A DNA stretch of 63,564 bases, filler included, from Octopus bimaculoides (lineage: Eukaryota), in the NCBI RefSeq assembly GCF_001194135.2. It is 6 parts of 6 records of this genome, joined end to end, with 100 filler letters (N's around TTAATTAATTAA, not from the genome) between each part and the next. Parts side by side here need not be neighbours in the genome. Positions count along the whole stretch, not along the records: positions 1 to 13,825 come from NC_068988.1; positions 13,926 to 23,090 come from NC_069006.1; positions 23,191 to 47,999 come from NC_069000.1; 3 more parts are not named here. One strand, written 5' to 3'. This document shows positions 5,138 to 41,469 of this stretch, piece after piece. Made by a program: the position numbers and the translations under genes. Under the pieces are notes generated by a model. That model did no database searches. It was given only the letters and a program-made list of their open reading frames with translations, and had not been told where the DNA came from. The stretch's first letter is position 1. Each line of letters begins with the position of its first letter.

Positions 5138-5544
5138 TTTAATGCACGTACATTATTGACAGACAAGTTACTGTATATATTAGCGTCAGAGGCAGTATTA
5201 ATACCGAGAGGTAATATTTATTCCCGCTTATACGTGGATGTTCTGTTAGAACAAACTTTACTGCCGTAGATACTAAGAAAGAAACCTTCATATAGGCTTT
5301 TGGTGCCGAGTGCACGCTTGCTTCTTTACATTGCAAGCGGGGATATAAATGCCCACCAACTCCAGCACCGAAACCACCAGATCATATGGTTTCGATCTTC
5401 CTCGATCTCATCGGTGATGGACGTTCGACCGCTAGAGATAGCAGAGACTCGTCTCCCCAGTAACGATATATAGAAAATCCGTACCTGAACAGGCACTGGT
5501 GTCCCGATTAGCCCATCCAGAGATAACATCTTTTATGAACGTGC
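5138..5544 (-). mobile_element. Retrozyme-like HHR-bearing non-coding unit (~390 nt)
   Basis: Contains HHR 5374-5420; sequence downstream of the cleavage site aligns by eye with 35576-35770 and 39888-40120. Confidence 0.65.
5374..5420 (-). ncRNA. Type I hammerhead ribozyme (U4C core variant)
   Basis: CCAUCA-CCGAUGA-GAUC(GAGGAA)GAUC-GAAA-CCAUAUGAUC^UGGUGG; stem I 6 bp with 1 GU, stem II 4 bp, AUC cleavage triplet. Confidence 0.8.
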
Positions 5545-5614
5545 TGCATTTAAAAGTACAGTATAAATTGGAGGAAGAGGAGAATCCTCCCAGCGGCAGC
5601 TGGAGAAAATGCTA

Positions 5615-5730
5615 GAATTTATCGACCCCGAAAGGATGAAAGGTAAAGATGACCACAGCAGAATTTGAACTCAGAATGTAAAGACAGATGAAATACCGCT
5701 AAGCATTTCGCCTGGCGTGCTAACGTTTCT
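5615..5730 (-). mobile_element. SINE family A, truncated second monomer of a dimer
   Basis: Body and head lacking the first ~15 nt, directly abutting the tail of 5731-5963. Confidence 0.85.
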
Positions 5731-5963
5731 CATTTCTTTATTGCCCACAAGGGGCTAAACGTAGAGGGGACAAACAAGGACAGACAAAGGGATTAAGTCG
5801 ATTACATCGACCCCAGTGCGTAACTGGTACTTAATTTATCGACCCCGAAAGGATGAAAGGCAAAGTCGACCTCGGCGGAATTTGAACTCAGAACGTAACG
5901 GCAGACGAAATACCGCTAAGCATTTCGCCCGGCGTGCTAACGTTTCTGCCAGCTCGCTGCCTT
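5731..5963 (-). mobile_element. SINE family A, full length (tail type A1)
   Basis: A-box-like TGGCAGAAACGTTAG, B-box GAGTTCAAATTCC, tail ...GGGCAATAAAGAAAT. Confidence 0.92.
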
Positions 5964-6162
5964 CCAGNNNNNNNNNNNNNNNNNNNNNNNNNNNNNNNNN
6001 NNNNNNNNNNNNNNNNNNNNNNNNNNNNNNNNNNNNNNNNNNNNNNNNNNNNNNNNNNNNNNNNNNNNNNNNNNNNNNNNNNNNNNNNNNNNNNNNNNNN
6101 NNNNNNNNNNNNNNNNNNNNNNNNNNNNNNNNNNNNNNNNNNNNNNNNNNNNNNNNNNNNNN

Positions 6163-6360
6163 GGGAACAAACAAGAACAGACGAACGGATTAAGTCGATT
6201 ACATCGACCCCAGTGCGTAACTGGTACTTAATTTATCGACCCCGAAAGGATGAAAGGCAAAGTCGACCTCGGCGGAATTTGAACTCAGAACGTAACGGCA
6301 GATGAAATACCGCTAAGCATTTCGCCCGGCGTGCTAACGTTTCTGCCAGCTCGCTGCCTT
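6163..6360 (-). mobile_element. SINE family A (near duplicate of 5731-5963 across a gap)
   Basis: Almost identical sequence and the same CTTCCAG flank; may be a haplotype or assembly duplicate. Confidence 0.85.
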
Positions 6361-6387
6361 CCAGATTACATATATTGTAATGCAAAT

Positions 6388-6608
6388 GATATTGGCTGCA
6401 AATTTTGGCACAAGGCCAGCAATTTTAGGGATGGGTTAAGTCAATTACATTGACTCCAACGTTCAACTGGTACTTATTTAATAGACACTGAAAGGATAAA
6501 AAGCAAAGCTGACATCGGAGGAATTAGAACTCAGAACGTATAGACGGACGAAATGCCGCCGAGCATTTTTTCCCCGGTGTGCTAACAATTCTGCCAGATC
6601 GCTTCCTT
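6388..6608 (-). mobile_element. SINE family A (tail type A3), older copy
   Basis: Tail complement AAATTTTGGCACAAGGCCAGCAATTT plus body and head. Confidence 0.8.
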
Positions 6609-7132
6609 TGTAAATAACATTGATATAACAAAAGAAAACCACCGGGCAAGAAATGAATGTCTTCCAACCCTCCTGGTCAAAATTTGTGGATGTTTTCTTC
6701 TTTAGACTCAGGGTCCATTTATGACCATTATATCTTACTATCTAACAATTTATCCAGTATTATTTATGCAAACAATATGCGCGTTCTTTGTTTTATTTTT
6801 TTCTAATATTGTAATGTGTTTATTTTTAACAAATTCAGTGATCACGTAGAGACTTCCCCATTGGTTAAGTTTGAGTCAAATGACATTTTCGTTGTTTCTG
6901 TATGTGCAAAGCTGTGTGGTTAAAAACTTCGTTTTGCGACATGATTAGTATTCGATTCCATTGTAGGTCACCTTAGGCATGTCTTTCACTAAAGACCAGG
7001 TTGATTAATATCTTGTGAGAGAGTGAGTGTAATTTAGTTAGCAATAGCTGTGCAGAAGCTCAAAATATGTGCTTGAGTGCACACACACACACACACACAG
7101 ATAGATAGATAGATAGATAGATGTAATTATCT

Positions 7133-7285
7133 TAAGTGCAGGTATGATTGTGTGTAAACAGTTTGCTTCCCAACCATGTGGTTCCGGGTTCAGTCTCATT
7201 GCGTGGCACTTTGGGCAAGTGATTTCTGCTACAGCCTCGAGTCGACTAAAGCTTTGTGAGTGGACTTAGTAGCCGGAAACTGTAA
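7133..7285 (+). mobile_element. SINE family B, 5' half
   Basis: tRNA-like head GGTTCCGGGTTCAGTC and CTTTGGGCAAGTG domain. Confidence 0.75.
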
Positions 7286-7461
7286 TAGTTCGACTCGAAA
7301 GCTTTACCTTAATTTAATTTACTTTAATTTGATTTATACATTTTCTTCTTTCTACACTTATCCTTAATTATTAACCGAAAGACAATTTGTTAATACTAAA
7401 ACTGAAAAGGAAATATTTTGCCTTCAGAACACCAAAGAAAGTAGATTTTATCCATTAATTT

Positions 7462-7606
7462 TTACTTTTATTTGACTCCAGTCATTCTGGGCACCGCCTT
7501 CATACGTTTAGTCGAACAAATCGATCCCAGGAATTGGTGTTTTTTTTTTGTTTTTTTTTAGGTATGGTATATATTCTATCGGTCTCTGTACCGAACCGCT
7601 AAGTTA
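7462..7606 (-). mobile_element. SINE family B, 3' half
   Basis: Complement of TAACTTAGCGGTTCGG...ATAGAAT and tail. Confidence 0.7.
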
Positions 7607-8059
7607 NNNNNNNNNNNNNNNNNNNNNNNNNNNNNNNNNNNNNNNNNNNNNNNNNNNNNNNNNNNNNNNNNNNNNNNNNNNNNNNNNNNNNNNNNNNNNN
7701 NNNNNNNNNNNNNNNNNNNNNNNNNNNNNNNNNNNNNNNNNNNNNNNNNNNNNNNNNNNNNNNNNNNNNNNNNNNNNNNNNNNNNNNNNNNNNNNNNNNN
7801 NNNNNNNNNNNNNNNNNNNNNNNNNNNNNNNNNNNNNNNNNNNNNNNNNNNNNNNNNNNNNNNNNNNNNNNNNNNNNNNNNNNNNNNNNNNNNNNNNNNN
7901 NNNNNNNNNNNNNNNNNNNNNNNNNNNNNNNNNNNNNNNNNNNNNNNNNNNNNNNNNNNNNNNNNNNNNNNNNNNNNNNNNNNNNNNNNNNNNNNNNNNN
8001 NNNNNNNNNNNNNNNNNNNNNNNNNNNNNNNNNNNNNNNNNNNNNNNNNNNNNNNNNNN

Positions 8060-8350
8060 GCTATGTGGTAAGAAGTTTGCTTCCCAGTAGACGGAAACTG
8101 AAAGAAGCCTGTCGAATATATATTATAGGTATATATTTGTCTGTTTGTCCCGTATCACTGCTTAACAACCGTGTTGATGTATTTACATCCCCGTAACCTA
8201 GCTTTTCAGCAAAAGAGATCGATAGCACAAATATCAAGCTTTAAAAAGTAAGTTCTGGAGTCGATTCATTCGACTGAAAATTCTTGAAGGTGGTGCCCCA
8301 GCATGGCCGCAGTCTAATGACTGAAACAAGCAAGAGATAAAAGGTAAAAG
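8060..8350 (+). mobile_element. SINE family B, internally deleted
   Basis: GACGGAAACTGAAAGAAGCC...GGTGCCCCAGCATGGCCGCAGTC. Confidence 0.8.
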
Positions 8351-9096
8351 AAGGTTGTGCGTGCGTGTGTGAACACACGCACATAAACCATTAAAGTCGT
8401 TGCTCTAGCATGGCCGCGATCCATTAACTGAAAACATTAAAAGAAAGGAAAAAGAATTTAGGCCATTTTCTCAGCACATGTCAACAACTCCATGTAAACA
8501 ATTGAGTCAATAGTCAGTCAAACACGTCAGTGTCAACAATTTAATCTCGATAAACAGGAATATGTTCTATAATTGTAGCTTTCATTAATGGCCCTGTCAT
8601 GTTTTTCACCCTGTTGTTTCAGCTTCTAAACATCAAGGGAAAAAGAAAACAAAAATCAACCGAACCATTGCTGCTGCTGCTTCTGCTGCTGCTGCTTCTG
8701 CTGCTGACACTACAATTGTCATTATAGAGACAAATCTTTCGGTTTATCATTATTTGTTACCTTACCTCCCTCTCCTCTCTATGTGCGCGCGTTTGCGTGC
8801 ATATATATATATATATGTATATATATATAAATTTATACAGAGAAAGAGAGAATGAGAATGTGAGTGTGTGTATGTGTACATGAGAATATATAGAATATAT
8901 ATAAATTATATTTCATAATGCTGAGACAACTTTGTTGTTGTGCTCAGAATTTTGCTGATAGAGTTGTTTTTCCCATCATTTACACACACATACACACACT
9001 CACTCACACACACACATGCACACGCTCAAACACATACATATATATGTATGTGTGTGTGTGTGTGTATGTATGCTTGTATGTAGGCATATGCAATTT

Positions 9097-9262
9097 TACT
9101 CTTTTACTTCCTTCAATCATTGGACTGCGGCCATACAAGAAAACCGGCTTGAAGGGTTCTTCAAACAAATTGACACCAGTACATATTTTAAGTTTAGTAT
9201 TCTTGTGCCTAATCGCCAAGTTACGAGGATGTAAATGAAGCAACACCGGTTTGAAGCGCTGT
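9097..9262 (-). mobile_element. SINE family B, 3' half
   Basis: TTTTACTCTTTTACTT...GACTGCGGCCAT. Confidence 0.7.
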
Positions 9263-9646
9263 GGGAGAAACAGAAAGACATGCACATAGATAGTTAGACA
9301 GACAGACAGACATATAGATAAATGCGCTTATTCTGCAATACAATGGTAACAGAAAACCATAAACCAGCACCATGCTTCCCCTTGACCAGTACCTTAGTGT
9401 TTCTCTAGTCCAAATATTAGTGTACAAATGCAAGGGTGAGTTGTGTGTTTTACAATGTCATCACGGTTTCTCGCCGCATCCCCTGTCTTTAAAAAACACA
9501 GACGGACAATCCTGTAGGCTTTGCTGTGTAGGATGGCGCATACTTCTTGTCATGCATCAGATGAGGCCTTTTCCAGATGCACGTCTGAAGGTAAACAAAA
9601 ATCCTCCACTATTTTAAGCATTCATAATTATATGAATGTATAATTT

Positions 9647-9810
9647 AGGCGCCGGAGTGGCTGTGTGGTAAGTAGCTTGCTTTCCAACCACATGGTTCCA
9701 GGTTCATTCCCACTGCGTGGCACCTTGGACAAATGTCTTCTACTATAGCCTCGGGCTGAACAAAGCCTTGTGAGTGGATTTGGTAGATAGAAGCTGAAAG
9801 AAGCTCGTCG

Positions 9811-9865
<55 letters not shown>

Positions 9866-9875
9866 NNNNNNNNNN

Positions 9876-9924
<49 letters not shown>

Positions 9925-10112
9925 TCCCACCATCGCTTGACAACTGATGTTGGTGTGTTTACGTCCCCGTCACTTAGCGGTTCGGCAAAAGAGACCGATA
10001 GAATAAGTACTAGGCTTACAAAGAATAAGTTCTGGGGTCGATTTGTTGGACTAAAAGGGCGGCGCTCCAGCATGGCCACAGTCAAATGACTGAAACAAGT
10101 AAAAGAATAAAA
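9647..10112 (+). mobile_element. SINE family B, full length with internal (TA)n(TG)n
   Basis: Head GGAGTGGCTGTGTGGTAAG, B-box, internal microsatellite, AAAAG-type tail. Confidence 0.92.
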
Positions 10113-12487
10113 TAATACGAGTGTCTCCGTTATCAGTTCTAAAGTATATTCTTTATGCAAGCGAAGACTATGTAGCTTGACATAATTATGCGAAGTCACT
10201 TGTTTCTGCAAAAACTTTCACGTAAAGCTTTTCTGCTGCACTTGTGACATTGGAGAAACTGCCGTCTTAAAAAATACTTTTAATAATTACAATGATTTGT
10301 TTTCTTACCATAATGGTGATGGGTAAGGAAACATTACAGGAGCAAATAGCAGAAACGATGAAGGTTTACATAGAATAGAGTGTAGAAAATCATAAAAACC
10401 AACAATATGAAAGAAAAGAAAGATTCCTTTTAGGTAGCAGTTATCTGAGTTAAATAAAGTAACTCCACAATTCCAGGCTTACCCTTACTGCATTGGGTAA
10501 ATGACCTCCTCCAGCTGTCATTTTCTGGTCTTCTGCTGAACTGAAGCCAGATTTTTTACTCACCGTTTCTAATTTCCACGAATGAAGCGAAGGTTACTGC
10601 TGAAGGCGAGGATCTGCACTTTCCCAACTACATAACCAACGGCAAGCACATCAGGCTCTTTACTAGCAGCTTGACCAAAATCTTAAACTCTACGCTCAGC
10701 CAAAAAAATATCAATAATGTTTCTCGCATTCTTTTTTAACACTACATCTCAACTGTTGTCATTGACATTTTGCACTACCTCATGTCTTCCGCCGTGTGTT
10801 TCGTTAGGCTGTTAACATCGGCACTAAGATCCACCACTGCTTGATGTCCATCGTTTGCTCCAAACAACTGAACAAAGTGCCGCTGGGAAGCCGCATACAC
10901 ATGTCAGTAATTGAATAATACACGTTTGTGCAGCTTCATCAAAGACTGTGTTATTGCTTTGTTGCTATGTCACACATCGCTTCTGCGGTATGGATCCATA
11001 GAAATGCTTTCATTTTCTAGTGCATTAGAGCACAAGACTTATGTCTGACAAAGCAACCATCGCGTTAAAGAAATAGGTGAAGACTATTATTGCCGCTAGA
11101 ATGTCGGTTGCTATGTCTTTCCTAAGCGTCTTTTCTGACTTATTCAGTAATTATTTCTCTACTTCTCGCTACTTCTTTGCTGAGTCCTATCGATTCTCCT
11201 CTAATCGTCCACTTCAGAGCACGCTGCCATCGAATGTTGACAGTCGTCCCCGAAAACTACTGCTGAACGAATTCGCTAAATAAGTCACTGAAGACTTTAC
11301 GCAGAGAGACCCTGTCGTTCAGCTTCCACTAGCCGGGCCCCTATCTAAACGTTCTATGTAGGTTAACTGACTGACCACACATTTCTGGTTTGTGTAAGCA
11401 GTCTCCTTGAAAATGTAGACATGTGACACTATTTCTATCCGCTGACCAAACAAATTGGTTTATCTAGATACGATTTGGGTCATCTGACGGAGTCGCTCCA
11501 TGTCCATATTATAGAAATCCTGTTAACAGAAATAAGAAATAGAAATCCTGTTAATAACTATAAGGCAGTCGGAATTGTTTAAGTATGTCAGTGAGGTTTA
11601 CACACCCGCATCTTATCAGCTAATGCCACACAATCTCAGCAGGAGACTAAAATGCCATTCGTTTTTCACTAGTGTCAGAGAGTGGGGCGTTCCAAAGAAC
11701 ACTTCTAGACACTTGAAGTAATCCGACGTGTACCAGTACTCCGAAGAAACATAGCCTTTGCTGCTGCTCACGCCCAGCAGCAGCAACAACTTTTAGTCCG
11801 CGACCGGGAAGATCACCTTCACATCAGGATCCATACAGATCTTGTATATCGATACTTGATATGGGTCAGACATAAAGACACATCCATCGCGTAGCCGTCG
11901 AATATATGCATAAATACATGTCTCTCCAAACACTATGATGTGTCAATCTCATGTTTAGAAGTCCTCAGCTGTTCAACTGCCAACTTAAAGAAATCAGAAA
12001 AATAAAAAGGATCCTCTACTAAAACATTTAAAAAAGACATTAGATAAACTCTTAACGACGAGACCGGACCAGCCAACCATTTAAACATACACACATAGAA
12101 GAGCAGCTGCTGCAAACTCAATCATTAAATATCTTCCAACTATAAAGCGACAACAGAATTGAAAGAAAATAAATTAAGGTGGTGCTCCAGCTTGGCTGCA
12201 GTCCTACTACTGAAATCGCTGAAAGAATAAAATCCCGCTGATAGGTACCACAACTGTATATATTGTCCTGTAGCCTTGTCTAAGACAACCTTAGGCCAAG
12301 TACATTCAAACATCCTACTCTGAGTTTGTCATACTTGCCGGAGAAAGATAAAGGCAATCTAATCTTCTCAGTACTGGAAAAGAGGATCCTTTGAAAGGTC
12401 TTTCAAAAATTTCTTCGCTGTCCTTTTTTTTCCCCCCGAAGTAGTTCCCATATCATAATGGTATTTTGATATGAATGTCATGTAGAT

Positions 12488-13318: not shown

Positions 13319-13326
13319 ATGTAGAT

Positions 13327-13530: not shown

Positions 13531-13534
13531 CTGT

Positions 13535-14629: not shown

Positions 14630-15870
14630 ATACTTAGATAAACTTTCACCAGAATTGGCCCAGGCCATGATTAACTTAATAGCAACACGTAGAAAAGATA
14701 TTTAATGATGTCTCATATTACAGTCATTCTTTGGGCACCACAGGCCATTCGAATAACGAGTTAGTAGGTGGCTTATTTGGAATTTGTTGAAGATATTCAT
14801 CCAGGAACCATCTGGATGTTAAGAGATCTTTTTCTTCTCTAATCTGTCTTAGCATGACGTTAAAGAGAGCAGGGCCAGTTGAGGGGATTTAGTTCTGTCT
14901 TAGTGTTGGGATGGGACACAAGCATGATTTTTGTAGAGGACGGATAGCATGGGGACCAAGCGTTGGATGAACTTTAAATCTGGTGCCTACATCAGTTGGG
15001 TTATGCTGTTGGATCATCTTTCACATCATACAAATGATATAGTGCTCAAGGAGGGAATAAAGTTGGGGCTTCTTAAGACGATCGAAATAATCTAGGCCTG
15101 TCATGATATCTATTTTTTTTTTCTTCTTTTATGATTGATCTCTGGACTGCTTCAATTTTTATAATATTTTGTTTCATGTAGGGAAACCACAACGGTATTC
15201 AAGGTGAGAACGGGCGAAGGTAGAGAAGAGAAGGATAATGGTAGGAGTGTCTCTAGACCCAAAAGTCCTGAGCTTTGAAAAGCGCCCCCTGCGGGCCATG
15301 TCGACTATGTTGTTTCTGTGGGCACCCCAGCTAAAGTTGCTATCGACAGTTACTCCTAGGTCCCTAGAAGTGTTTGATGCCACGAGGTTTTCCCCCGAGG
15401 GAAGAGTGTATGGTAGTTTAAGTGTAGCCTCTTTACCAAAGTGGATTAATTCGAATTTATTCTCGTTTAGCTACGTTTTGTGCTTATCGGGCCATCAAAT
15501 AACAGCAAACAGGTCCGATTGGAAATTAGTTCGGTCTCCTGTTCTATTGACGAGCTTCAGAGGCGTAGAATCATCCGCGAAAATCTAATGTTGATGAGTT
15601 CGATGACGTCAGCGGTGTCATTGGTATAAATAGGAAAAGGAGTGACCCCAATACAGTCGTTTGTGGGACTCCACTGATGATTCTTGCCGAGCTTGATCGA
15701 ATATCATCGATTACCACATGCTGGATTCCGTTCACCAGAAAACTCTCAATCCCCTTCAATAGTTTCCCTCGGACTCCAGTGTTTGATAGTTTCTTTAACA
15801 GGGTGTTGTGGTCAACCTTGTCGAAGGCTTTGCTGAAGTCGAGATAGATGACATTTGCACTGATGATCTA
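14630..15870 (-). pseudogene. 5'-truncated CR1-group LINE; reverse transcriptase and C-terminal region, disrupted
   Basis: VIYLDFSKAFDKVDH, SGVPQTTVLGSLLF, FADD, RDLGVTVD, RSHLEY, IEAVQR, GPALFN motifs with stops and frameshifts. Confidence 0.9.
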
Positions 15871-15889: not shown

Positions 15890-15892
15890 TTC

Positions 15893-16766: not shown

Positions 16767-18056
16767 TTATTCAAAAATAATCATGTCATCGTCCTCTGGA
16801 ATATCATTGTTCTGCAAATCACCGATTCTAAAATTCCTGCGGAGTTTTCGTGTGACTCCATTTCCTGCAGAACTTTCGTCCCCAATCTCTCATGTCGATC
16901 AACAGAGGTCTCATTGAATGAGAAGTTCTTATCCAGGCAGCCTACTCGTAGTGCATTGCCAACACAGCTGTCTGTGATTTTGTTTCATGAATTCTTCACC
17001 CAAGACACGATCTCTTGCAGGCTGGGTTTCACAAAATTTCCACGCTGATTTCTCATCATTCTGTTTTCAATGTAGTCATTGATTTCCACGCGTAAATGGT
17101 CCTTGACTGGTTTATTTATTGCAATGTCAGGAGCCTGGAGATAGGCAGTCATTCCTGCAGGAATCATGATTTGATCTATTCTTCTTTCTGTACGGAAGTT
17201 CTTCATGTCTTTTGCGCGGTGCGTGCTGGCTAAAAGCCAGACTACCAGACCTCTTTGGCCTCCTCGCAAAATAAGTGGCAGCATGAAATCTATCCATTTC
17301 CTTAAAACTGCCTGTGTACACCATGCCTTTTCAGTTTCCACAACACAGATGCCTGAAACGCGTTCAATTTCATCCTTCCTGCCTTTAGTGATGATTAGAG
17401 GTGAGGTTTACTTCCATTGAGACGAACTGCCAAAATACATGTAACTCGTGCACTTTCGTAACCAGTGGAGGGAATGTAGATTGATGACGCAGCCCTTTGA
17501 TCGATTGTTGATTGAGATCCTTGGCCCATGAATACTGCGGTTTCATGTTGGAGAGACAGTATTTAGAAAAGTCTATCCCATCAACAAAGGACTTAAATGC
17601 AAGTGCACATTTAATAATCTGCGTATCTTCCAATTTGAACAATGTTGTCGGCCATCTCAGAGAAAGTTCATGTCGCTGAAGGAAGCCATCCAGCCAGTGT
17701 TTTGAAACTTTGAATTCTTCTGGAAATATACCAAACTGTGGTGCATTTGCAACGGCAAATGCTTGAATATCAGTCCTGCGAACAACCGAAGCCTTTGTTC
17801 TCTCGTCAGCAACCCATTCATAGATGACGTCTTCCAGCTCAGAAAATGGTGGTCGCCGACCTAATCCACACTTGCGTTTCTTTGCATTTCTCTCATCCAC
17901 TTCTTGACTGAGTTTATCGTAGTCTACTCGCCATTTTCAAAACATTCGGAGATTCAAATTCTTTTCTTTGCAGAAAACAGTAAGATTCTTGCCCAGAGAT
18001 TCCTCCATGATTCCTTTCTAGTATTCGATGGAATATCTCCTTCTTCTTGCATTCAT
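16767..18056 (-). pseudogene. pogo-type transposase (CENP-B-like HTH + DDE_1), inactivated
   Basis: GRRPPFSELEDVIYEWV, FKVSKHWLDGFLQRHELSLR, KAWCTQ, IPAGMTAYLQAPDIAINKPVKDHLR; several stops and frameshifts. Confidence 0.9.
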
Positions 18057-20199: not shown

Positions 20200-20625
20200 C
20201 CGTTCATGGGTGGGGAGTATTGTAATCTCTGTCCCTTATATGCCATGGAAAACGGGTTAACCTGCAAGCCTTCTGAGTCCCGTGATTCGTGAAATATCCT
20301 GCGGTTCTATATTTTTGAGATGAGGAATTATGTGCATTATTGACAATGGACGAATAGGTATCCTCACCTTGTTTGTTGTTACCACAACGTTTCGGCTGAT
20401 GTATTCTCCAGCCTTCATCAGGTGTCCCGGTGGAATTTCGAACCCAACCCTTTATTTGACTAATGGGGTACACTGTTCTCAATCCTAAGGTATTTTTTGG
20501 TTGATGTTATCATTATTTATTCAAGTCACTGCCTGGGATTGAACCCAGAATCTTGGTCAGTGGTTAAGAACGTGGGCTTCTAACGCCAAGATTCCGGGTT
20601 CAACCTCAGGCAGTGACTTGAATAA
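20200..20625 (-). mobile_element. Penelope-associated repeat with minimal HHR and terminal hairpin
   Basis: CTGATGAAGGC...GCCGAAACGTTG signature; 40-bp inverted arms at 20517-20625. Confidence 0.55.
20383..20424 (-). ncRNA. Minimal (Penelope-type) hammerhead ribozyme
   Basis: CAC-CUGAUGA-A-GGCUG(10 nt)CAGCC-GAAA-CGUU^GUG; palindromic AACGUU replaces stem III; stem I only 3 bp. Confidence 0.65.
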
Positions 20626-23372: not shown

Positions 23373-23672
23373 TATATATATATATATATATATACATACC
23401 GGAGTAAGCACATGAAATGTGCAACAAGGTGGAAAAAAGAGTACTCAAATACCAGAGGTAGAGTAATATGCTTTATTTAAAAGCAGCAGAAATATAACAA
23501 AAGTCTGTTACTCTGAGTTTCACGTTCCCGTTCATCGGACAGTTTTGTTATATATATATATATACATATATATATATACACACACACACATACTGTATAT
23601 ACTTATATATGCAGCTGTTTTTATATATATTTATATATGTATGTATATGTATATATATCTATCTATCTATCT

Positions 23673-24041
23673 ATCCGGATACGTTCGTGCTGCTGGTCGT
23701 GGTGAGAGGGATAACTCCCTTGGCAAACAGGACACAGTCGTGTGTCGATAAGCCAGCTGGAGGAGATGTCCTCCTGGGGCTAAAAGCAACAGTAACATCC
23801 ACCCCTAGGGGTCAGCCACACTTAAGTGGCAATATACTACACTTTATCGTGCAGTTACTGTTAATACTTCATTTAGAGAATTAACATTGCTTGTTTTCAC
23901 CTTTTCAATATCAGTGAAGAATGTCACTGGAAAAGAAGATATAAGATTTTGCCAGGTTTTTCTCTCTCACCAAGGTCATCAGCTGTCGAACGCCGAAGAA
24001 GGGAAATAACCCTGAAATCCGGATACGTTCGTGCTGCTGGT
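23673..24041 (+). mobile_element. Retrozyme-like tandem unit, period 344 nt
   Basis: 25-nt direct repeat ATCCGGATACGTTCGTGCTGCTGGT at 23673 and 24017; complete HHR at the junction; followed by a 330-N gap. Confidence 0.8.
23987..24031 (+). ncRNA. Type I hammerhead ribozyme (U4C core variant)
   Basis: CGAACG-CCGAAGA-AGGG(AAAUAA)CCCU-GAAA-UCCGGAUA^CGUUCG; stem I 6 bp, stem II 4 bp, palindromic stem III AUCCGGAU. Confidence 0.85.
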
Positions 24042-24397
24042 NNNNNNNNNNNNNNNNNNNNNNNNNNNNNNNNNNNNNNNNNNNNNNNNNNNNNNNNNNN
24101 NNNNNNNNNNNNNNNNNNNNNNNNNNNNNNNNNNNNNNNNNNNNNNNNNNNNNNNNNNNNNNNNNNNNNNNNNNNNNNNNNNNNNNNNNNNNNNNNNNNN
24201 NNNNNNNNNNNNNNNNNNNNNNNNNNNNNNNNNNNNNNNNNNNNNNNNNNNNNNNNNNNNNNNNNNNNNNNNNNNNNNNNNNNNNNNNNNNNNNNNNNNN
24301 NNNNNNNNNNNNNNNNNNNNNNNNNNNNNNNNNNNNNNNNNNNNNNNNNNNNNNNNNNNNNNNNNNNNNNNTATATGTATGTATGTATGAGCTTATG

Positions 24398-32988: not shown

Positions 32989-32996
32989 ATTATTAC

Positions 32997-33042
<46 letters not shown>

Positions 33043-33870: not shown

Positions 33871-34171
33871 TGGAAGGATGAAATATACCTGTGATTAAAT
33901 ATGGGTGCAGCAGAAAGGTTGCCCCAATTTCGATGGTTAATAAAAAGCAAACACATGAAGATACAAGAAAAAAATGATGCTCTCCACTCCAGGCCACGGT
34001 GGGTACTATCTAAAACAGAAAAAAATGTGGCATTTAATGAACTTCATAGAAATACAAAGTTTTTTCATACGTCTTCATGTGTTTGTTTTTTATTAACCTT
34101 TGAAATTGGGGCAACCTTTCTGCCACACCCTGTATTTGTGCATCATTAAATGGGCAAAAAAACAACAACAC

Positions 34172-34583
34172 AGTGGCTGTGTGGTAAGTAGCTTGCTTAC
34201 CAACCACATGGTTCCGGGTTCATTCCCACTGTGTGGTACCTTGGGCAAGTGTCATCTACTATAGCCTCGGGCTGACCAAAGCCTTGTGAGTGGATTTGGT
34301 AGATGGAAACTGAAAGAAGCCCGTCGTATATATGTATATATACATGTGTGTGTGTATGTTTGTGTGTCTGTGTTTGTCCCTTGAAAATTGCTTGACAACC
34401 GATGCTGGTGTGTTTACGTCCCCGTAACTTAGCGGTTCGGCGAAAGAGGCCGATAGAATAAGTACTAGGCTTCCAAAGAATTAGTCCTGGGGTCAATTTG
34501 CTCGACTAAAGGCGGTGCTCCAGCATGGCCGCAGTCAAATGACTGAAACATGTAAAAGAGAAAAGAGAAAAGAGAAAGAGAAA
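34172..34583 (+). mobile_element. SINE family B full length
   Basis: Head, internal TA/TG tract, (AAAAGAG)n tail. Confidence 0.92.
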
Positions 34584-34775
34584 GACATTGGGTATAGTGA
34601 ATGAAGATCAATAGCTAGTTGTGACTATTGTGTCACAGTATAGATAGTACTTTGTCAAAATGGACTTGCCAGAAGGCCACAGAACCATATTGGAACTATG
34701 CCCAGTGGAAAGTACTGAGAAAGAGAGCATGAGGTTGGTCAGAGTAAAACATACTTCAGAGTTGAAAATCTAGAA

Positions 34776-35060
34776 CAGGGGTTTTCAAACTGTGGTCCGC
34801 GGACCACAAGGGGTCCGCAAGGACAAGACAGGGAGTCCGTGGAAAGCTAAGACAGGGGTCCGTGCAAAGCCAAGTAAACACATCCTTCTCACTAAGTATG
34901 TATTAAAAAAATCCTGTGTGTATAATTGACAATAAACCTATTTGTTAAATACTGTTAAATAAATGTTATTTTAAGCAAATATTTATGTATAAATTTCATA
35001 AGCATTTGTAAAGCCTGAAAGGTAAAGGGGTCCGCAAGTCAAAAAGTTTGAAACCCCCTG
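34776..35060. mobile_element. hAT/Charlie MITE (second family)
   Basis: TIRs CAGGGGTTTTCAAAC / GTTTGAAACCCCCTG; perfect TSD ATCTAGAA. Confidence 0.92.
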
Positions 35061-35207
35061 ATCTAGAAGAACTGAGAAGACTAAGTAAAAACAAAGAAAG
35101 CAAAATGATGAAAATTAACATCAGAAAAATCAACATCAACAACAGGTCCCAGTTTCCAGAGCACCAGCAACCATAATTCTGGGGATAACAAAGAAAGTAT
35201 CTTTAAG

Positions 35208-35800
35208 TTAGGAAACTAGTCTGTTATAAATCCATGTTCAAGATAGAAGCAGTATATGAACCAAAGGTAGTGTTTATCCTCATTTTAATGTGGGTGTTCA
35301 CTAAAAGACAACGATACTGCAACTTTAACCCCAGGAAGACATCTCCAGCTGGTTTATTTAGTGTGCTTTCCGCACTCAATATTTATTGCAAGTGGGAGAT
35401 AACTCCTGCCATCCGAGCAATAAATATCGAGATTTTCTAATGGACTAGTTTCCTAATTACAAAATCAGTGGTTGTATGACACTGTATTTTCTGTATCTTG
35501 CAAGCGAGGTTAAATTACTGCCATGCTTAGCAAATGAGTGCCCCCCACTGAAGAGATCCAATAAGATTGAAATTATGGGGTGTAGTGGTCTCAAAGCTAG
35601 GATGGCAGGAGTTATCACCCACTTGCAATAAATATTGTGTGCAGAAAGAGCACTGAATAAAACCAGCTGGATGATATGTATTCTTGGGGTTAAAATTGCA
35701 GTATCGTTGTCTATTACAGGACACCCACGTTAAAGTGAAGATAAACACTACATTATCTTTAGGCTTATTATCATAAATAAATAAGCAAGTTTCTCTTCTA
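35208..35800. mobile_element. Head-to-head pair of retrozyme-like units (partial minus copy plus ~355-nt plus copy)
   Basis: 35264-35415 is the reverse complement of ~35600-35752; HHR at 35543; body homologous to the units at 5138, 23673 and 39847. Confidence 0.7.
35543..35580 (+). ncRNA. Minimal type I hammerhead ribozyme
   Basis: CCCCA-CUGAAGA-GAUC(CAAUAA)GAUU-GAAA-UUA^UGGGG; canonical core, stem I 5 bp, stem II 4 bp with 1 GU. Confidence 0.8.
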
Positions 35801-36584
35801 ACAGCAACAACATGTAGTATCATACTTTCATCGTGTTACAAAGGAGAAATAATTACAGACGAAAATTCCCAAATACTTGGTGAAATTACAAAGGGAAAAA
35901 AGAGAGAAAAAAACCTCAGAGAATGAAGACTCAATATTAAACAATGAAAAATGATGAGAAAACCTGGCCAGTCTTACACTGCCATTAGGTCAAATGTGAA
36001 ACCATCTAACAATCTTTTTAACCTCCACAGCTACATCGGTATCCAAAGACTGATGTATCTCTACCTATTCTTTTGACATATTTTTCACTTATAGATTTCG
36101 GTATCTATTGGCAACAGGATATGCTTCAAAACTGCCTTCTATTTGATTAAGCTTTTGTTTTCTTTTTCTTTTTTTTTTATCTATTCCTCAGGAATTCATT
36201 TTACAAATAGACAGGCTGGTAAGCAGACAGATGTTTGTCAGGAAAACATCAATCAAAACTAGCTAGCCTATGTATATAGTGCAACTGCTCTGAAGCTCCA
36301 AGACCTCTCAAGCTTCTGTCAATAATTTCAAGATTCTAGTCACCTACAATGCGCTACTAATGGAAATAGTCTTGATACTGTGGTGAATATGTTTTCACAT
36401 AAAAGGCATATCTATCATAAGTAATACTTGGTTGTTTTTATTTTACTCAATTTAGTAATTAGGTTTGGCCAAATGATTAAGATGCTTGTTGCACAGCCAT
36501 AAATTTTTGGGTTCCACTCCACAACGTTAAGTATAGGGAAAGTACGAGCTTCTATGATCTTTGGTTGTTGAGTCTCAAGGAGGT

Positions 36585-37030
36585 GATGACAAGTGACTGA
36601 GACTTCTGGCGGTTTGCTGTGCTTGAGATAACACATTGTGACAGTGACACGTAAAAGGCACCTGTGCTGATGACATGTAAAAGATACCCATGCTGGTGAC
36701 ATGTAAAAGGGCACCTGTACCAGTGACACATAAAAGACACTCATGCCAGTGACACGTAATAAGCACCCATGCTAGTGACATGTAAAAGAGTACACGTGCC
36801 AGTGGCATGTAAAAGGCACCTGTGCCAATGACATGTAAGAGGCACCTGTGCCAGTGATACATAATAGGTACCCATCCCAGCAAAACATAAAAAGGACACC
36901 TGTGCTGGAGACACATAAAAGGATACTTGTGCTGGTGACATGCAAACCACACTTAGTACACTCAGTAGAGTGGTTGGCATCAGGAAGGGCATCCAGCTGT
37001 AGAAACCAAGTTAAAACAGACTGGAGCCTA
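36585..37030 (+). mobile_element. Family D retroposon with ~30-bp tandem array (GTGACATGTAAAAGGCACCTGTGCCA-like)
   Basis: About 10 degenerate units followed by GGTTGGCATCAGGAAGGGCATCCAGCTG. Confidence 0.75.
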
Positions 37031-37044
37031 GTGCATATATCCAT

Positions 37045-37228
37045 ACACGTCTGCCGTTACGTTCTGAGTTCAAATTCCGCCGAGGTCGACTTTGCATTTC
37101 ATCCTTTCGGGATCGATAAATTAAGTACCAGTTATGCACAGGGGTCGATGTAATCAACTTAACCCCTTTGTCTGCCCTTGTTTGTCCCCTCTATGTTTAG
37201 CCCCTTGTGGGCAATAAAGAAATAAGAA
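37045..37228 (+). mobile_element. SINE family A (tail A1), 5' truncated
   Basis: B-box, body and tail. Confidence 0.9.
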
Positions 37229-37523
37229 ACTGTATGGAAGCTCATCATGAAAGCTTCTGATACATTGCATTTTTTGAAAGGGTTATTTTGAAGTACAAGA
37301 GTCTGAGAAGTACTGAGCCATTTACTTACTAACTTCAATGAGCAGGGAATTCAGTTAATCCAACAACTGAAGTACTCACAGTTAAAGACCAGGGCAGGAT
37401 CTGACTTACTTTTACCCAAGTTGGCGAAACTAGTCAAGTTAGATGCTACGTGTATAGTCATGCACCATCCTACAATAGTTCAAGCACCTTAAAATCATTT
37501 ATTAATACAGCTGCACACACATG

Positions 37524-37568
<45 letters not shown>

Positions 37569-37577
37569 GTTCTAAAT

Positions 37578-37855
37578 CAGGGGTTTTCAAACTTTTTGAC
37601 TTGCAGACCCCTTTATATTTCAGGCTTTACCTTAGGGACCCCCTTATACATAAACATTTGCTTAAAATAACATATATTTTTACATTTATTTATTTAACAG
37701 TATTTAACAAATAGGTTTATTGTCAATTAAAAGATTTCGATTAAAAAACATATATAAAATCAAATTGCCCATAAAAAGTATTTGCTGTCCACGGACCCCC
37801 TGTCTTGTTCTTGCGGACCCCCTGTGGTCTGCGGACCACAGTTTGAAAACCCCTG
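37578..37855. mobile_element. hAT/Charlie MITE, same family as 34776-35060 in opposite orientation
   Basis: TIRs CAGGGGTTTTCAAAC / GTTTGAAAACCCCTG; perfect TSD TTCTAAAT. Confidence 0.92.
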
Positions 37856-38364
37856 TTCTAAATCATGCATGCATACGCATGTTTACATACTCATGTACGT
37901 GTATTTACATGCATACATGTATACGCAACAACAACACTATGCTAATAAATAATGCTATAACAAACTGAGATGGGTGGGAGGAAGAAGACGGAGGATGAAG
38001 ATGATGGCGATGGTGGTGATGACGATGGTGGTGATGACGATGATGATAATGATAATGACAACGACGGCGAAGGCAAGGAGGGGAGGAGGAGGAGGAGGGG
38101 AAAAGAAGAAGAAACAACTTTATCATTTTAGTAATTAAGTCAAACTGTGGAAGCTGAGCAGTTTCTCTAATTTCTCGATGCTTATATATGCATATGTATG
38201 TCTCTCTCTTATTGTCTCTTTGGGTTTCTTTCTCTCTACATAAATACATACATACATTAATATGCACACACATACACATATGTATATATATATGTGTGTA
38301 TGGATATATGTATGTACGAGGGGAAGTCAAAAATTATCCACACTTTCGCCATGACATATCTCTT

Positions 38365-38748
38365 TTACTCTTTTACTCTTTTACTTGTTTCAGTCATTAG
38401 ACTGCGGCCATGCTGGAGCACCACCTTTTGTCAAGCAAATCGACTTATTCTAGTACTTATTCTATCGGTCTCTTTTGCCGAACTGCTAAGTTACGGAGAC
38501 GTAAACACACCAGCATCGGTTGTCAAGCGATGGTGGTGGGACAAACACAGACGCACAAACACACACATATATATATACATATACATATATACGATGGGCT
38601 TCTTTCAGTTTCCATCTACCAAATCCACTCACAAGGTTTTGGTCGGCCCAAGGCTATAGTAGAAGACACTTGCCCAAAGTGCGATGCAGTGGGACTGAAC
38701 CCGGAACCATGTGGTTGGTAAGCAAGCTACTTACCACACAGCCACTCC
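38365..38748 (-). mobile_element. SINE family B full length
   Basis: Complement of head, body and (TTTTACTC)n tail. Confidence 0.92.
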
Positions 38749-38953
38749 TGGTCACACTGCCTTGTACACATGCATGCTTATAGTTGGTACTATTGTGTTC
38801 ACGTGATACAAGTTTGAGCCTGATCGAGCCATTTTTCTTTCTGGCTTTACACTGTAAAGCCAGAAAGGTCACTCCACTAGCAATTCATATATGTATATAT
38901 TTATATGCAAACACACATATACATGTATGTAAGTATCTATTTATACATGTGTG

Positions 38954-39012
<59 letters not shown>

Positions 39013-39269
39013 TTTATTATTATGCACAGAGAAATTAGGGAAACCACTCAGCTTCTACAATTTGACTTAATTACTAAAATGATAAAGCTGTTTCTTCTTC
39101 TTTTCCTCCTCCTCCTCCTCCTTGCCGTCGTCGTCATCGTCGTCATTGTCGTTGTCATCGTTATCATCATCATCACCACCAACACCGCCACCACCATCGT
39201 CATCATCCATTTTCTTCCTCCTCCAACCCATTTCAGTTTGTTATATCATTATTTATTTGCATAACGTTG

Positions 39270-39700
39270 TTGTTGTTTAACCCTCGATCAACCTTGATTG
39301 ATAGACTTATGATCCAAGAGCTTCCAATCATGGCCACCCCATCGTTTTCTCTCTACAAAGAACCCATGATTACATTATCCATTATATTAAGGCGACGAGC
39401 TGGCAGAAACGTTAGCATGCCGGGCAAAATGCTTAGCGGTATTTCAACTGTCTTTATGTTCTGAGTTCAAATTCCGCTGAGGTCAACTTTGCCTTTAATC
39501 CTTTCGAGGTTGATAAGTTAAGTACCAGTTGTGTATTGGGTCGGTCTAATCGACTGGCCCCCTCCCCCAAAATTTTGGGCCTTGTACCTAGAGTAGGAAA
39601 GATTATTCATTATATTCCTTTTAAGACATTAATGTGTGATTTGAAGAAAGCTTTACTACTTTTTCTAGCATTTCAAGTGACCACACATAAGCTTCCCCAT
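39270..39700 (-). mobile_element. Family E repeat interrupted by a SINE
   Basis: TTGTTGTTTAACCC tail complement; TTAAGACATTAATGTGTGATTTGA. Confidence 0.6.
39389..39601 (+). mobile_element. SINE family A (tail A2)
   Basis: 15-bp TSD ATTAT(C/T)CATTATATT at 39374-39388 and 39602-39616. Confidence 0.92.
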
Positions 39701-39846
39701 TAGCTTGATTGGTTTCCTCTATAATATTATGTTCTTTGGCATTTTGTACAGCTGTTGTTGCTTCAACTCAGGTCAGCTCTTGGACATTGGCTGTTCTTTC
39801 TAGTATACTGATACTTGTAGAAGCACCTGTATTAACATATTTTTTA

Positions 39847-39894
39847 TATATTACCGAAGAAGTCCAGCAGACTGAAATCACTTGATTTGGTAGA
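39847..39894 (+). ncRNA. Type I hammerhead ribozyme, partly decayed (U4C)
   Basis: UAUUA-CCGAAGA-AGUC(CAGCA)GACU-GAAA-UCACUUGAUU^UGGUA; stem I has 2 GU pairs. Confidence 0.7.
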
Positions 39895-40179
39895 TTTTGG
39901 TGCCTATAATGGATGATTCTCATCTGCTACGATATTTGTCTGTCCTTTTATGCATCATGCATCTCTATGAGAGGATCTCATAATGCTAATGTCACGGTAT
40001 TCAGCGTTCTTACAAGACAGCCACATTAAATTGGGTATAAAGATTTCCTTTTGGTGCTAATATAGATGCCGTCACGCATAATTATTTTTCAATAAACTTG
40101 CTGGCTATTTGTGACTGGAAAGACACTAATATTCTACATACTGTGTCAGTGAGATTTGGCTGATATGAGGCCACTGGAT

Positions 40180-40229
40180 ACCTGCCACTGAAGAAGTCCA
40201 GTAGACTGAAATCACCTGATCTGGCAGGT
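40180..40229 (+). ncRNA. Type I hammerhead ribozyme, canonical
   Basis: ACCUGCCA-CUGAAGA-AGUC(CAGUA)GACU-GAAA-UCACCUGAUC^UGGCAGGU; stem I 8 bp, stem II 4 bp, AUC triplet. Confidence 0.9.
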
Positions 40230-40429
40230 CCAGCACCCATAGCAATTGGTTCTTTGTCTACTACAATATGTCAGTGCTGTTTTGCACCATGTTTCTATAT
40301 GAGAGGACCTGTCAATGCTAATACTGCAGTTTTTTGGAATTTCAACAAGTCATCCTCATTAAAGTGGATATAAAAATTGCCCTTTGGTACTGATATAAAT
40401 TCTGTTACTGATACTTATTATTTAATAAA

Positions 40430-40855
40430 TTCGGCTTGCGAAGACCTGTTGGGGCAAGCGAAAGTGAAATCGTGATGACACCTGTGCCCAGCGTCGCCTT
40501 CCTGGTACTTGTGCCGGTGGCACATGTAAAGACATTTGAGCGAGATCGTTGCCAGTGCCGCTGAACTGGCTCCTGTGCAGGTGACACGTAAAATACACCA
40601 TTTTGAGTGTGGCCGTTGCTGGGAGTGGTTGGTATTAGGAAGGGCGTCCAGCTGTAAAAACCTTGCCAAATCAGATTGGTGCATGTAAAAGCACCCACTA
40701 CACTCTCGGAGTGGTTGGCATTAGGAAGGGCATCCAGCTGTAGAAACTCTGCCAAATCAGATTGGAGCCTGGTGTAGCTATCTGGTTCATCAGTCCTTAG
40801 TCAAATTGTCCAACCCATGCTAGCATGGAAAGCGGATGTTAAACGATGATGATGA
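40430..40855 (+). mobile_element. Family D retroposon inserted in retrozyme unit 2
   Basis: Duplicated GGAGTGGTTGG.ATTAGGAAGGGC block and (GAT)n tail; flanks rejoin to match unit 1. Confidence 0.85.
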
Positions 40856-41469
40856 CTGACTATTTGTGACAACAGTGACTGAAAGGACACTAATGGCAGC
40901 AAGAATTAGCTGAAATCATGTACTCTGGCAGTTCTGGTACCTATAAAAGATGCTTCTTGTCTGCTATAATATATATCTGTACTTTTATGCACTTTTATGC
41001 TTCTATATAAAAGGACCTTGCAAGGTGAGTACTGCAGTATTTGGCACTCTAACAAGACGTCTATGTTAAGTTTGGATATAAAGATTGCTTTGGTTCTAAG
41101 ATTGCTTCCATCGTGAATAACTGTTTTTTATTATTGTTCTTGTTACTATTGTTATTTTTGTTGTTGTTGCAGATATTAAGATTAACCCTTCTGTTACCAT
41201 ATTTCTGTAGAAAACCACTGCTTTCGTTTCAACTAATTTTGAAAATTATGAAGAATTTAGTTAAATAACCTTATCATTATTAAGCTGGTGGTTTGGCGCA
41301 TAAATTAACATGAAATTTTGATGGAAGGTTTTAACTGAGATCCCTTCAAAGCTGAAGCTTCTGTCATAAAACCAAGGGTCGTCTCAGGCAGGTTTGCATT
41401 AAAAACCTGTGCTGTTCCTGTCATTGTTGTGGTTGTTATGACTGTTGTTAATGTTGTTAGTGCTGCTGT

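Follow-up and report, generated by a model that had tools for sequence, protein, structure and literature searches.

The window analysed here, 63,564 nt of Octopus bimaculoides DNA (GCF_001194135.2) in six joined parts, contains four loci that carry type I hammerhead ribozymes: A (5138-5544, minus strand), B (23673-24041), C (35208-35800) and D (39847-41130).

Hammerhead motifs and unit anatomy

At all four loci the ribozyme folds are present. The type I core with stems I and II surrounds each of the cut sites predicted in an earlier note on this DNA (5380|5379 on the minus strand, 24025|24026, 35575|35576 and 40221|40222), and a fifth core with both stems lies at locus D (cut 39887|39888). 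A descriptor search, with a descriptor that was written after the loci had been seen and that allows U4C, gave 8 distinct hammerhead cores in the window, where 200 shuffled windows gave 0.015 on average; it found the family ribozyme in one polarity only. The features are as follows, with unit positions counted from the cut site and the three copies at locus D called D1 to D3.

5374-5420, minus: locus A type I hammerhead, cut 5380|5379; Rfam HH9 21.5 bits (E 0.008), under the cut-off
5155-5379, minus: locus A body, +1 to about +225, conserved block included; leave-one-out match at 5266-5158
5421-5511, minus: probable tail of the locus A unit, upstream of its ribozyme; weak, aligns with the C tail, core included
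23673-23681, plus: 5' end of locus B, the final 9 nt of the preceding unit, beside a (TA)/(TATC) microsatellite
23682-24025, plus: locus B complete 344-nt monomer of an apparently young, high-copy subfamily (from repeats, profile and public runs)
23987-24031, plus: locus B hammerhead, cut 24025|24026
24026-24371, plus: start of the next B unit (24026-24041), followed by a gap of 330 N, roughly the length of a unit
35198-35205, plus: candidate 8-bp target duplication TATCTTTA (weak), second copy at 35754-35761
35208-35424, minus: locus C inverted, 5'-truncated copy, about +21 to +231; leave-one-out E 1.1e-15
35434-35757, plus: locus C forward copy, with tail from about +209, ribozyme, and body to about +180
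35543-35580, plus: locus C hammerhead, cut 35575|35576; Rfam HH9 14.6 bits, E 2.6
39849-39892, plus: D1 hammerhead, degenerate, cut 39887|39888
39888-40221, plus: D1 unit, 334 nt, decayed; circular fold z -0.9
40180-40229, plus: D2 hammerhead, cut 40221|40222; Rfam HH9 26.6 bits, E 2.3e-4
40222-40924, plus: D2 unit, split by an unrelated dispersed repeat (about 40432-40855)
40925-41133, plus: D3 body, +1 to +209; of the ribozyme before it only the 3' half is present

The locus A motif has a U4C core, a 6-bp stem I, a 4-bp stem II and a near-palindromic helix III with one mismatch. Locus B likewise has a U4C core (C at 23994), together with A10.1-U11.1 and a helix III that is a perfect 8-nt palindrome of the dimer type. 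The C motif consists of a U4 core and a 5-bp stem I, with helix III absent. At locus D the first motif has either U4C or a small deletion and a weak 5-bp stem I with two G-U pairs, and the second, the best preserved of the locus, has a U4 core and an 8-bp stem I. U4C, which reduces hammerhead activity in vitro (PMC3088659), is thus found in three of the five cores. In the family motifs stem II is 4 bp long and A9 is not followed by a bulge, and their architecture agrees with the canonical metazoan type, in which helix I is about 6 bp, helix II 4 bp and helix III short and palindromic (PMC4209133). As helix III is palindromic or absent, dimers would be needed for cutting. Across A, B, C and D2 all four stem II pairs, and four of the first five stem I pairs, change on both sides.

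The Rfam search proposed earlier returned no match at gathering score anywhere in the window; all HH9 scores lie below the cut-off of 52, and locus B has no Rfam hammerhead match at all. When the whole window was searched at E up to 1, the best 150 of 471 matches were microsatellite noise and were set aside. Hammerheads at 23509, 51049 and 54632 were left out, having no alignment to the family bodies at z > 3, as was that at 20386, where there is no family-profile match. The 20386 motif, unrelated to the family, has a long stem II and a bulge, as in the minimal hammerheads of pLTRs.

Periods of 344 nt (B) and 334 nt (D) had been described as exact. The periods themselves stand, but exact repetition at B is limited to 25 nt (23673-97 = 24017-41) and the D copies are about 70% alike; locus A is a single copy and so has no period of its own. 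Locus D is a head-to-tail trimer of short units, the second of which is deleted ahead of the third ribozyme. Since the first cut site at B lacks the 5' half of its ribozyme, D1 is degenerate and D3 is halved, no locus shows two intact consecutive cut sites, and the proposal that consecutive cleavage would release monomers was overstated. Two consecutive units with complete hammerheads, by which Li, Clavereau and Pollet (bioRxiv 10.64898/2026.07.22.740005) recognize a putatively active locus, are seen only if the degenerate D1 is counted with D2; A, C and the visible part of B have one complete motif each. The locus B insertion crosses a cut-site junction, and the gap that follows probably holds a further unit copy. 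The units are ORF-less as described, the longest ATG frame on the circularized unit being 72 aa (B) or 43 aa (D1), with a GC content of 0.38-0.45 and no Pfam match in frames over the loci. The circular fold of the B unit (-115.7 kcal/mol) has a z of -5.1, where each z is from 40 shuffles and two control stretches gave -2.6 and 0.1.

Locus C is not the simple permuted monomer that had been supposed; its permuted sequence belongs to an inverted composite, from which a unit of 350-354 nt is implied. The forward copy is longer than one unit and is joined to the inverted copy, whose end its first 23 nt overlap with 20 of 23 identical. The two arms (the inverted copy and 35596-35754) are 85.5% identical over 159 nt, and the inverted copy carries 56 nt beyond the shared arm at its 3' end. 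The second copy of the candidate target duplication may lie partly inside the element. Elsewhere, the words shared at A and D either have low complexity or lie in the wrong place, and the right end of B falls in the gap. Self-BLAST of the window revealed no LTR pair, and of the 162 TRF rows the 150 listed include no array with a period of 334 or 344 nt. The general repeat search was dominated by N runs and microsatellites.

Homology, copy number and probable RNA

The three body strings quoted in the earlier note are present where it placed them, and its claim that the bodies align holds when they are compared by profile. Direct alignments are not significant for A-B (p 0.25) or B-D1 (p 0.22), and BLASTN by itself connects A with none of the other three loci, so profile tests were needed. 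A profile built without a given locus still finds that locus, with E values of 1.1e-10 for A, 1.4e-9 for B, 1.1e-15 and 1.8e-11 for the two C copies, and 1.4e-7, 1.4e-4 and 0.21 for the three D copies. The bodies are collinear, with only 36-50% identity between loci. Homology of A to D1 stops at +225. The unit tails are barely alignable (one of six pairs at p about 0.01, the rest mostly not significant), and without the core the A tail gives p 0.10 against C and 0.04 against D1. On these sequence comparisons the loci constitute one homologous family with a head-to-tail arrangement.

The family is multi-copy and not, as the earlier note had allowed for, single-copy: there are 7 body copies at the four loci, and 11,535 contigs of one DNA run match the 344-nt unit 23682-24025, of which 4,714 do so at 99% or better. 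Head-to-tail joints of the B unit occur among these contigs. The B subfamily therefore has a high copy number, to be read only as an order of magnitude of about 800 to 49,000 copies on the assumptions of at most 31-fold overlap and a single-copy depth of 58; summed contig depth is not usable as a copy number. One DNA contig, of depth 46.6, has an extra G at the 24025-to-23682 joint, which may be chance. Among the core positions listed, the most variable is N7 (23997; 72% A>C in the DNA run), which is the free position, and among the 40 rows listed 23989 A>G retains stem I as a G-U pair.

A share of 0.88-1.00 of B's words is present in 19 of the 24 public runs listed; 12 of these are possible sources of this DNA, leaving 7 runs from 6 studies. 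Runs X20 (share 0.06) and X21-X24 (0.00) lay outside the contig comparison. Three runs that are guessed to be RNA cover the B unit, judged from contigs only and with no silent control stretch. A 374-nt contig in X18 (344+30) wraps round the unit with one difference, and a 387-nt contig in X17 (357+30) does the same for a related unit; such closed cycles, seen in two of the three runs, would equally be given by tandem DNA or uncut multimers. Several contigs of these runs continue into unlike flanks.

In X18 record 17, a contig of depth 2, 18 of the 19 changes listed (26 differences in all) are A>G, and for none of them does the DNA run show the change at more than 1.5%. The 5' neighbour is U or A at 16 of the 18, compared with 15 of 42 unedited A (p 1.4e-4), as is seen with ADAR; depletion of 5' G alone is not significant at these sites (p 0.17). 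The cluster points to plus-strand RNA. It is likely, then, that the ribozyme strand is transcribed and that some molecules are A-to-I edited. The edited A's are paired in the monomer fold no more often than the unedited (7 of 18 and 17 of 42), so that this fold leaves the editing unexplained; that an inverted or antisense copy provides the pairing would be a guess. The A>G excess in X15 and X17 was not counted as editing since DNA shows the same (4 of 13).

Proposed mobilisation and alternative readings

The earlier note interpreted the loci as a cephalopod family of non-LTR retrozymes probably mobilized in trans, with Penelope as the candidate partner. This reading is supported, in that the units align, are multi-copy and show no Penelope ORF adjoining them among the frames scanned, and we give it a probability of roughly 0.7. 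By analogy with the known class, tandem source loci would be transcribed into multimeric RNA, paired hammerheads would cut the multimers to monomers and a host ligase would circularize these. The anatomy of the copies suggests the remaining steps: a Penelope RT-endonuclease may begin reverse transcription inside the unit, at a point roughly 180-240 nt downstream from the cut site, and read back through an intact cut-site junction. Such copying would produce insertions that are permuted, exceed one unit in length or are inverted. A candidate protein-recognition site is the conserved block, at about +105 to +190. The 3' ends of the copies lie at +180 to +231 and not at the cut site, which fits the internal initiation downstream of the hammerhead described for PAc (PMC11167929). 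An inverted 5'-truncated copy with a one-sided extension is also described for Penelope-like insertions (PMC8557442); locus C, one locus of the four, is alike, with an extension of 56 nt against the 30-40 described. Thirty recently active Penelope families are reported from O. vulgaris (PMC13282606). Weighing against the reading, only one of nine retrozyme dimers in Xenopus was cleaved (bioRxiv 10.64898/2026.07.22.740005), PAc insertion does not need cleavage, U4C stands in three of the five cores, the unit tails barely align and all Rfam scores are below cut-off. Loci A, C and D are best explained as old dead copies and B as a young one.

The same Penelope-like structure at C would be expected if the units were pLTRs or truncated ends of autonomous Penelope elements, with no self-standing circular RNA family. 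Penelope pLTRs bear type I hammerheads, their copies are mostly truncated, Xenopus retrozymes are homologous to pLTRs (bioRxiv 10.64898/2026.07.22.740005), and 7,716 bases of the window are hidden in gaps, one of them directly after B. We regard this as unlikely. In the 150 longest frames out of 216 (each of at least 63 aa, gaps being outside view) Pfam found no GIY-YIG or Penelope RT domain, and no autonomous partner element was identified in the window; the matches found were RVT_1 (15574-15867), DDE_1 with HTH_Tnp_Tc5 (16988-17936) and three weak, unrelated ones. Locus D repeats short units head to tail, the share of matched sequence in the DNA run that continues into unlike sequence is 0, the 6 loose ends listed for that run are variants of the unit itself (163 loose ends over all runs lie outside the listing), and the family ribozymes have neither the long stem II nor the bulge of the pLTR minimal hammerheads.

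Alternatively, the family may now be satellite-like and spread as DNA by unequal crossover and local inversion, its ribozymes slow or dead relics and its RNA read-through. U4C and A10.1-U11.1 in B, the decay at A, C and D, the joints standing in DNA and the unlike flanks of several RNA-guess contigs would all suit this, and a staggered break subsequent to insertion could account for the inversion and the 23-nt duplication at C. It is nevertheless quite improbable, as the copies are dispersed on both strands, the stems covary across very diverged subfamilies, the most variable core position listed for B is the free N7 and the change listed at 23989 keeps the stem I pair, and the B fold is far better than its shuffles. 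An infectious viroid-like RNA captured into the genome would match the size, the circular fold and the nearly identical single-variant cycle in X18, a run labelled as a different organism (organism B), but is very improbable: host DNA contains the unit as thousands of variant contigs, the window has diverged subfamilies of some age, the ribozyme occurs in a single polarity, a 22-nt ribozyme stretch has no exact match in viral and metagenome collections (a narrow test), and X18 may be a close relative or carry-over.

A more far-reaching form of the retrozyme reading, which we consider doubtful, is that B is a currently mobile, abundant circular RNA and an ADAR target in octopus. Its amplified consensus would carry a U4C hammerhead that is weakened, works only as a dimer and is kept slow, which lets the circles persist; insertions of the locus C type would then record Penelope enzymes that prime on both strands and copy a longer-than-unit template. 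If true, this would provide a direct footprint for the mobiliser and a natural test of how circles escape recutting.

Relation to known systems

In newt satellite 2 and schistosome Sm-alpha, tandem units a few hundred bases long carry a type I hammerhead and are transcribed. The octopus units, for which transcription is likely, share this plan by description. The newt hammerhead repeat is also mentioned by Cervera and de la Pena (2020; PMC7229834), who give non-LTR retrozyme units of 220-245 nt in coral, 350-390 nt in mussel and 353 nt in axolotl. The octopus family resembles these in its tandem non-coding units (334-357 nt in octopus) of GC below 50%, each bearing a single type I hammerhead, in its large number of genomic copies, perhaps, for the B unit, in a self-paired circular fold and, in the case of the mussel, in a mollusc host; the likeness to the mussel family is one of description. 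In contrast, cleavage and circles are demonstrated there and the octopus family is known from sequence alone, with U4C in three of five motifs and subfamilies 36-50% identical within one 64-kb window. The canonical hammerhead, head-to-tail units within 150-450 bp, non-coding sequence of GC under 50% and many copies are features of the class that the octopus family shows, and it joins this already known class. The class also lacks LTR, PBS and PPT, and its target duplications, where there are any, exceed 4 bp.

The preprint of Li et al. (bioRxiv 10.64898/2026.07.22.740005) argues a Penelope origin of non-LTR retrozymes from co-occurrence and pLTR homology in 31 vertebrates, 3 insects and 1 coral, with no mollusc. 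Its retrozymes occur as monomers, dimers and multimers, with trans mobilization proposed as for octopus; the octopus argument is based on insertion footprint and not on pLTR homology. With Penelope pLTRs (PMC4209133, PMC11167929, PMC8557442) the family shares a dimer-requiring type I ribozyme, an inverted 5'-truncated copy, 3' ends that lie downstream of the ribozyme and AT-rich or microsatellite targets, and differs in its short tandem unit, the absence of an RT-GIY-YIG ORF from the frames scanned and a canonical rather than minimal ribozyme. Given the mussel publication, the 235 Rfam hammerheads reported from giant squid and the Penelope link already proposed, the class itself is not surprising. 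The literature searched contained no octopus description of this family, whereas the class is published for mussel (PMC7229834) and a Penelope origin is argued in the 2026 preprint.

The family would extend non-LTR retrozymes to cephalopods and makes a probably very abundant, so far apparently unlabelled octopus repeat a ribozyme-bearing one. Which enzyme moves animal retrozymes becomes testable, as insertion footprints can be counted genome-wide, and so does the way in which circles avoid self-cutting, through a U4C core in a successful family. The family may also supply edited RNA in an animal with very high RNA editing.

Hammerhead motifs and the repeat family

Four loci in the window carry hammerhead repeats, and these repeats are a real feature:
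locus A, about 5155-5511, minus strand
locus B, 23673-24041
locus C, 35208-35760
locus D, 39849-41133, with successive copies D1, D2 and D3

A structure descriptor based on the hammerhead consensus, with C allowed instead of U at core position 4 (U4C), detected eight distinct cores in the window, where 200 shuffled windows gave 0.015 on average. A second descriptor that allowed a bulge also detected eight (background 0.07), gaining a motif cut at 20386 and losing one cut at 23509. Five of the cores in the window are members of the A-D family, and the four cut sites named in the earlier note proved to be exact. Comparison of A, B, C and D2 shows both sides altered in all four pairs of stem II and in four of the first five pairs of stem I. 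The Rfam search proposed alongside those sites lends weak support: at gathering score there is no match in the window, the HH9 matches at D2 (26.6 bits), A (21.5) and C (14.6) all lie below the cut-off of 52, and locus B has no Rfam hammerhead match. The core is U4C in A, B and D1, and U4 in C and D2. U4C reduces activity in vitro and still permits viroid infectivity (extracts of PMC3088659). Locus B has an 8-nt palindrome as its helix III and locus C lacks this helix, features that point to dimer-dependent cleavage (extracts of PMC4209133).

The bodies of the units share 36-50% identity between loci in a multiple alignment, and within loci 64-68% (D copies) and 70% (the two C copies). A profile built with one locus left out at a time recovers A at E 1.1e-10, B at 1.4e-9, the C copies at 1.1e-15 and 1.8e-11 and the D copies at 1.4e-7, 1.4e-4 and 0.21, which bears out the claim of alignable bodies forming one family; the pairwise body alignments A-B and B-D1 are not significant. 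A common block lies at equal distance from the cut site in the loci, at about +105 to +190 (counted from +1, the first nucleotide after the cut); ahead of the ribozyme, the unit tails can hardly be aligned between loci. The units are non-coding, as the description of them as ORF-less had it, with a GC content of 38-45%. Upstream of locus A, 5507-5590 (minus strand) is more like the beginning of the D1 body (z 6.8; profile E 0.24) than like locus A's own body, and locus A may be a composite.

Anatomy of the loci and insertion

Locus B consists of one full 344-nt unit. On its left are 9 nt of the previous unit, adjoining a TA/TATC microsatellite; on its right come 16 nt of the next unit and then 330 N, a gap in which we infer a second B copy. 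Locus D is a decayed trimer: the first ribozyme is degenerate, unit 2 is interrupted by an unrelated repeat and the third ribozyme is only half present. In locus C an inverted copy (+21 to +231) stands head to head with a forward copy that runs from +209, through the ribozyme, to +180; the two overlap by 23 nt and imply a unit of 350-354 nt. Identity is 85.5% in the arms they share and 87% in the overlap, values consistent with sequences that would have been identical at insertion and have decayed equally since. None of the four loci displays two consecutive intact ribozymes in the sequence visible (330 N follow B), so the earlier proposal that these loci would release monomers is not supported.

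By analogy with the retrozymes in extracts of PMC7229834, tandem loci would give transcripts that are cut into monomers and then closed into circles, probably by RtcB. On their 3' side the insertions stop at +225 in A, at +180 and at +231 in C, and at +209 in D3. In two sequencing runs guessed to be RNA, one contig each exits the unit past +211, the two continuing into different flanks, and other contig exits from the B unit lie at 23782-23867. In PAc, a Poseidon-type Penelope element, reverse transcription begins at an internal point downstream of the hammerhead; cutting and extension take place on both strands, and insertion has no need for cleavage (PMC11167929). Penelope-like insertions often comprise an inverted 5'-truncated copy and a one-sided tail of 30-40 bp (extracts of PMC8557442); locus C fits this arrangement, its extension measuring 56 nt. 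If locus C arose in one event, the template would have been more than a unit long and have spanned an intact cut site, and would therefore have been a circle or an uncut multimer. Alternatively, the structure could result from twin priming, a mechanism of L1 elements, or from a later inversion. As to whether the units are merely termini of intact Penelope elements, an objection foreseen in the earlier note, Pfam found no GIY-YIG domain in the best 150 by length of 216 filtered frames (7,716 window bases being N), which speaks against it. The same 150 frames gave a reverse transcriptase fragment, a pogo-type transposase and three weak unrelated matches.

The B unit in public sequencing runs

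Between 0.88 and 1.00 of the 33 words of the B unit are present in 19 of the 24 listed runs. Twelve of these are flagged as runs from which this DNA may itself derive; of the remaining seven, from six studies, five are guessed to be RNA and one stands under a second organism label. Contigs were matched to the B unit in four of the seven (X4, DNA; X15, X17 and X18, guessed RNA). X4 holds 11,535 matching contigs, 4,714 at ≥99% and 4,621 at 95-99%; head-to-tail joints are present and the share continuing into unlike sequence is 0. A rough bracket for copy number is 800 to 49,000, the summed depth itself being no copy number. In one X4 contig (depth 46.6) an additional G stands precisely where two monomers join, between 24025 and 23682; it could be chance, or a base added without template during ligation or template jumping. 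The unit is covered by 53 contigs in X15 and by 59 in X17, and X18 (organism B, the second label) has two, of 374 and 231 nt. The 374-nt contig wraps round (344+30, which would be a closed cycle given words of 31 letters), and a 387-nt contig of X17 equals 357+30, from a related unit; in such cycles circles and tandem multimers are indistinguishable. X18 has the B unit with one difference and almost no variants, which may reflect a close relative, carry-over or transfer.

U4C is probably the consensus of the B subfamily, since C>T at 23994 is absent among the 40 table rows listed, an X17 contig covers this position without a difference, and N7, the core position free to vary, varies at 23997 in 72% of the DNA depth. 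The 231-nt contig of X18 (depth 2) has 26 differences, and 18 of the 19 listed are A>G, each at ≤1.5% in X4 DNA and five at zero. U or A lies 5' of 16 of the 18 sites and of 15 of the 42 A's left unedited (p 1.4e-4); depletion of 5' G alone gives p 0.17. Octopus has very high hyper-editing, with G depleted upstream of edited sites (extracts of PMC5625713), and the cluster, in one low-depth contig with unmatched DNA, has the pattern expected if ADAR hyper-edits the ribozyme strand.

The A-D family probably belongs to the known class of non-LTR retrozymes, of which a mussel member measures 350-390 bp (extracts of PMC7229834). Extracts of a preprint covering 35 genomes, with no mollusc, argue that animal retrozymes are non-autonomous Penelope derivatives and report cleavage of one of nine dimers (bioRxiv 10.64898/2026.07.22.740005). 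The giant squid genome paper tabulates 235 Rfam hammerhead 1 loci, without analysis in its extracts (PMC6962438). For O. vulgaris, the repeat annotation gives 30 Penelope families as recently active, and "ribozyme" and "hammerhead" have 0 occurrences in its extracts (PMC13282606); "octopus" likewise has 0 in the main texts of PMC7229834, whose supplement may name further taxa, and PMC7761336. No description of an octopus retrozyme or edited retrozyme RNA was found among the top-ranked papers of the literature searches, which covered non-subscription papers. Three features merit further attention, each on limited data: the U4C core carried by the young and abundant B subfamily, the footprint at locus C that resembles Penelope insertions, and the editing signal.

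Other elements in the window

The window also contains:
1088-1156 and 55547-55699, interstitial TTAGGG-like arrays
15177-15867, minus strand, LINE-type reverse transcriptase fragments (RVT_1 at 15574-15867, E 2.6e-5, Pfam)
16988-17936, minus strand, broken transposase of the pogo/Tigger type (Pfam HTH_Tnp_Tc5 and DDE_1, split over two frames)
20380-20425, minus strand, minimal hammerhead of the Penelope terminal repeat (pLTR) type, cut at 20386
23375-23550, minus strand, short solo element with a compact U4C hammerhead, cut at 23509
50992-51057, plus strand, well-formed type I hammerhead with long stem II, cut at 51049
54626-54690, minus strand, well-formed type I hammerhead with long stem II, cut at 54632

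The motif cut at 20386 has a bulged A after A9, a 6-bp stem II, a palindromic helix III and a 3-bp stem I, and is probably a solo Penelope end. The hammerheads cut at 51049 and 54632, each near an N gap, face each other 3.6 kb apart and are unrelated to the A-D bodies; they are possibly termini of young Penelope copies that the gaps conceal. The element at 23375-23550 lies between TA microsatellites, on the strand opposite to locus B and about 130 nt away from it, and has no homology to the A-D family. A frame at 53157-53760 (plus strand), with no Pfam match among the best 150 of 216 frames, resembles by eye a Helitron protein fragment. SINE-like dispersed repeats are very frequent (5616-5960, 40432-40860 and many more), one family occurring at at least 15 places, and their spurious frames match Octopus 'hypothetical proteins'. 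One such repeat-derived frame, 38401-38718, supports Octopus as the host genus: it has four matches among seven candidates, three of them from Octopus, the best with 85% identity in O. vulgaris.
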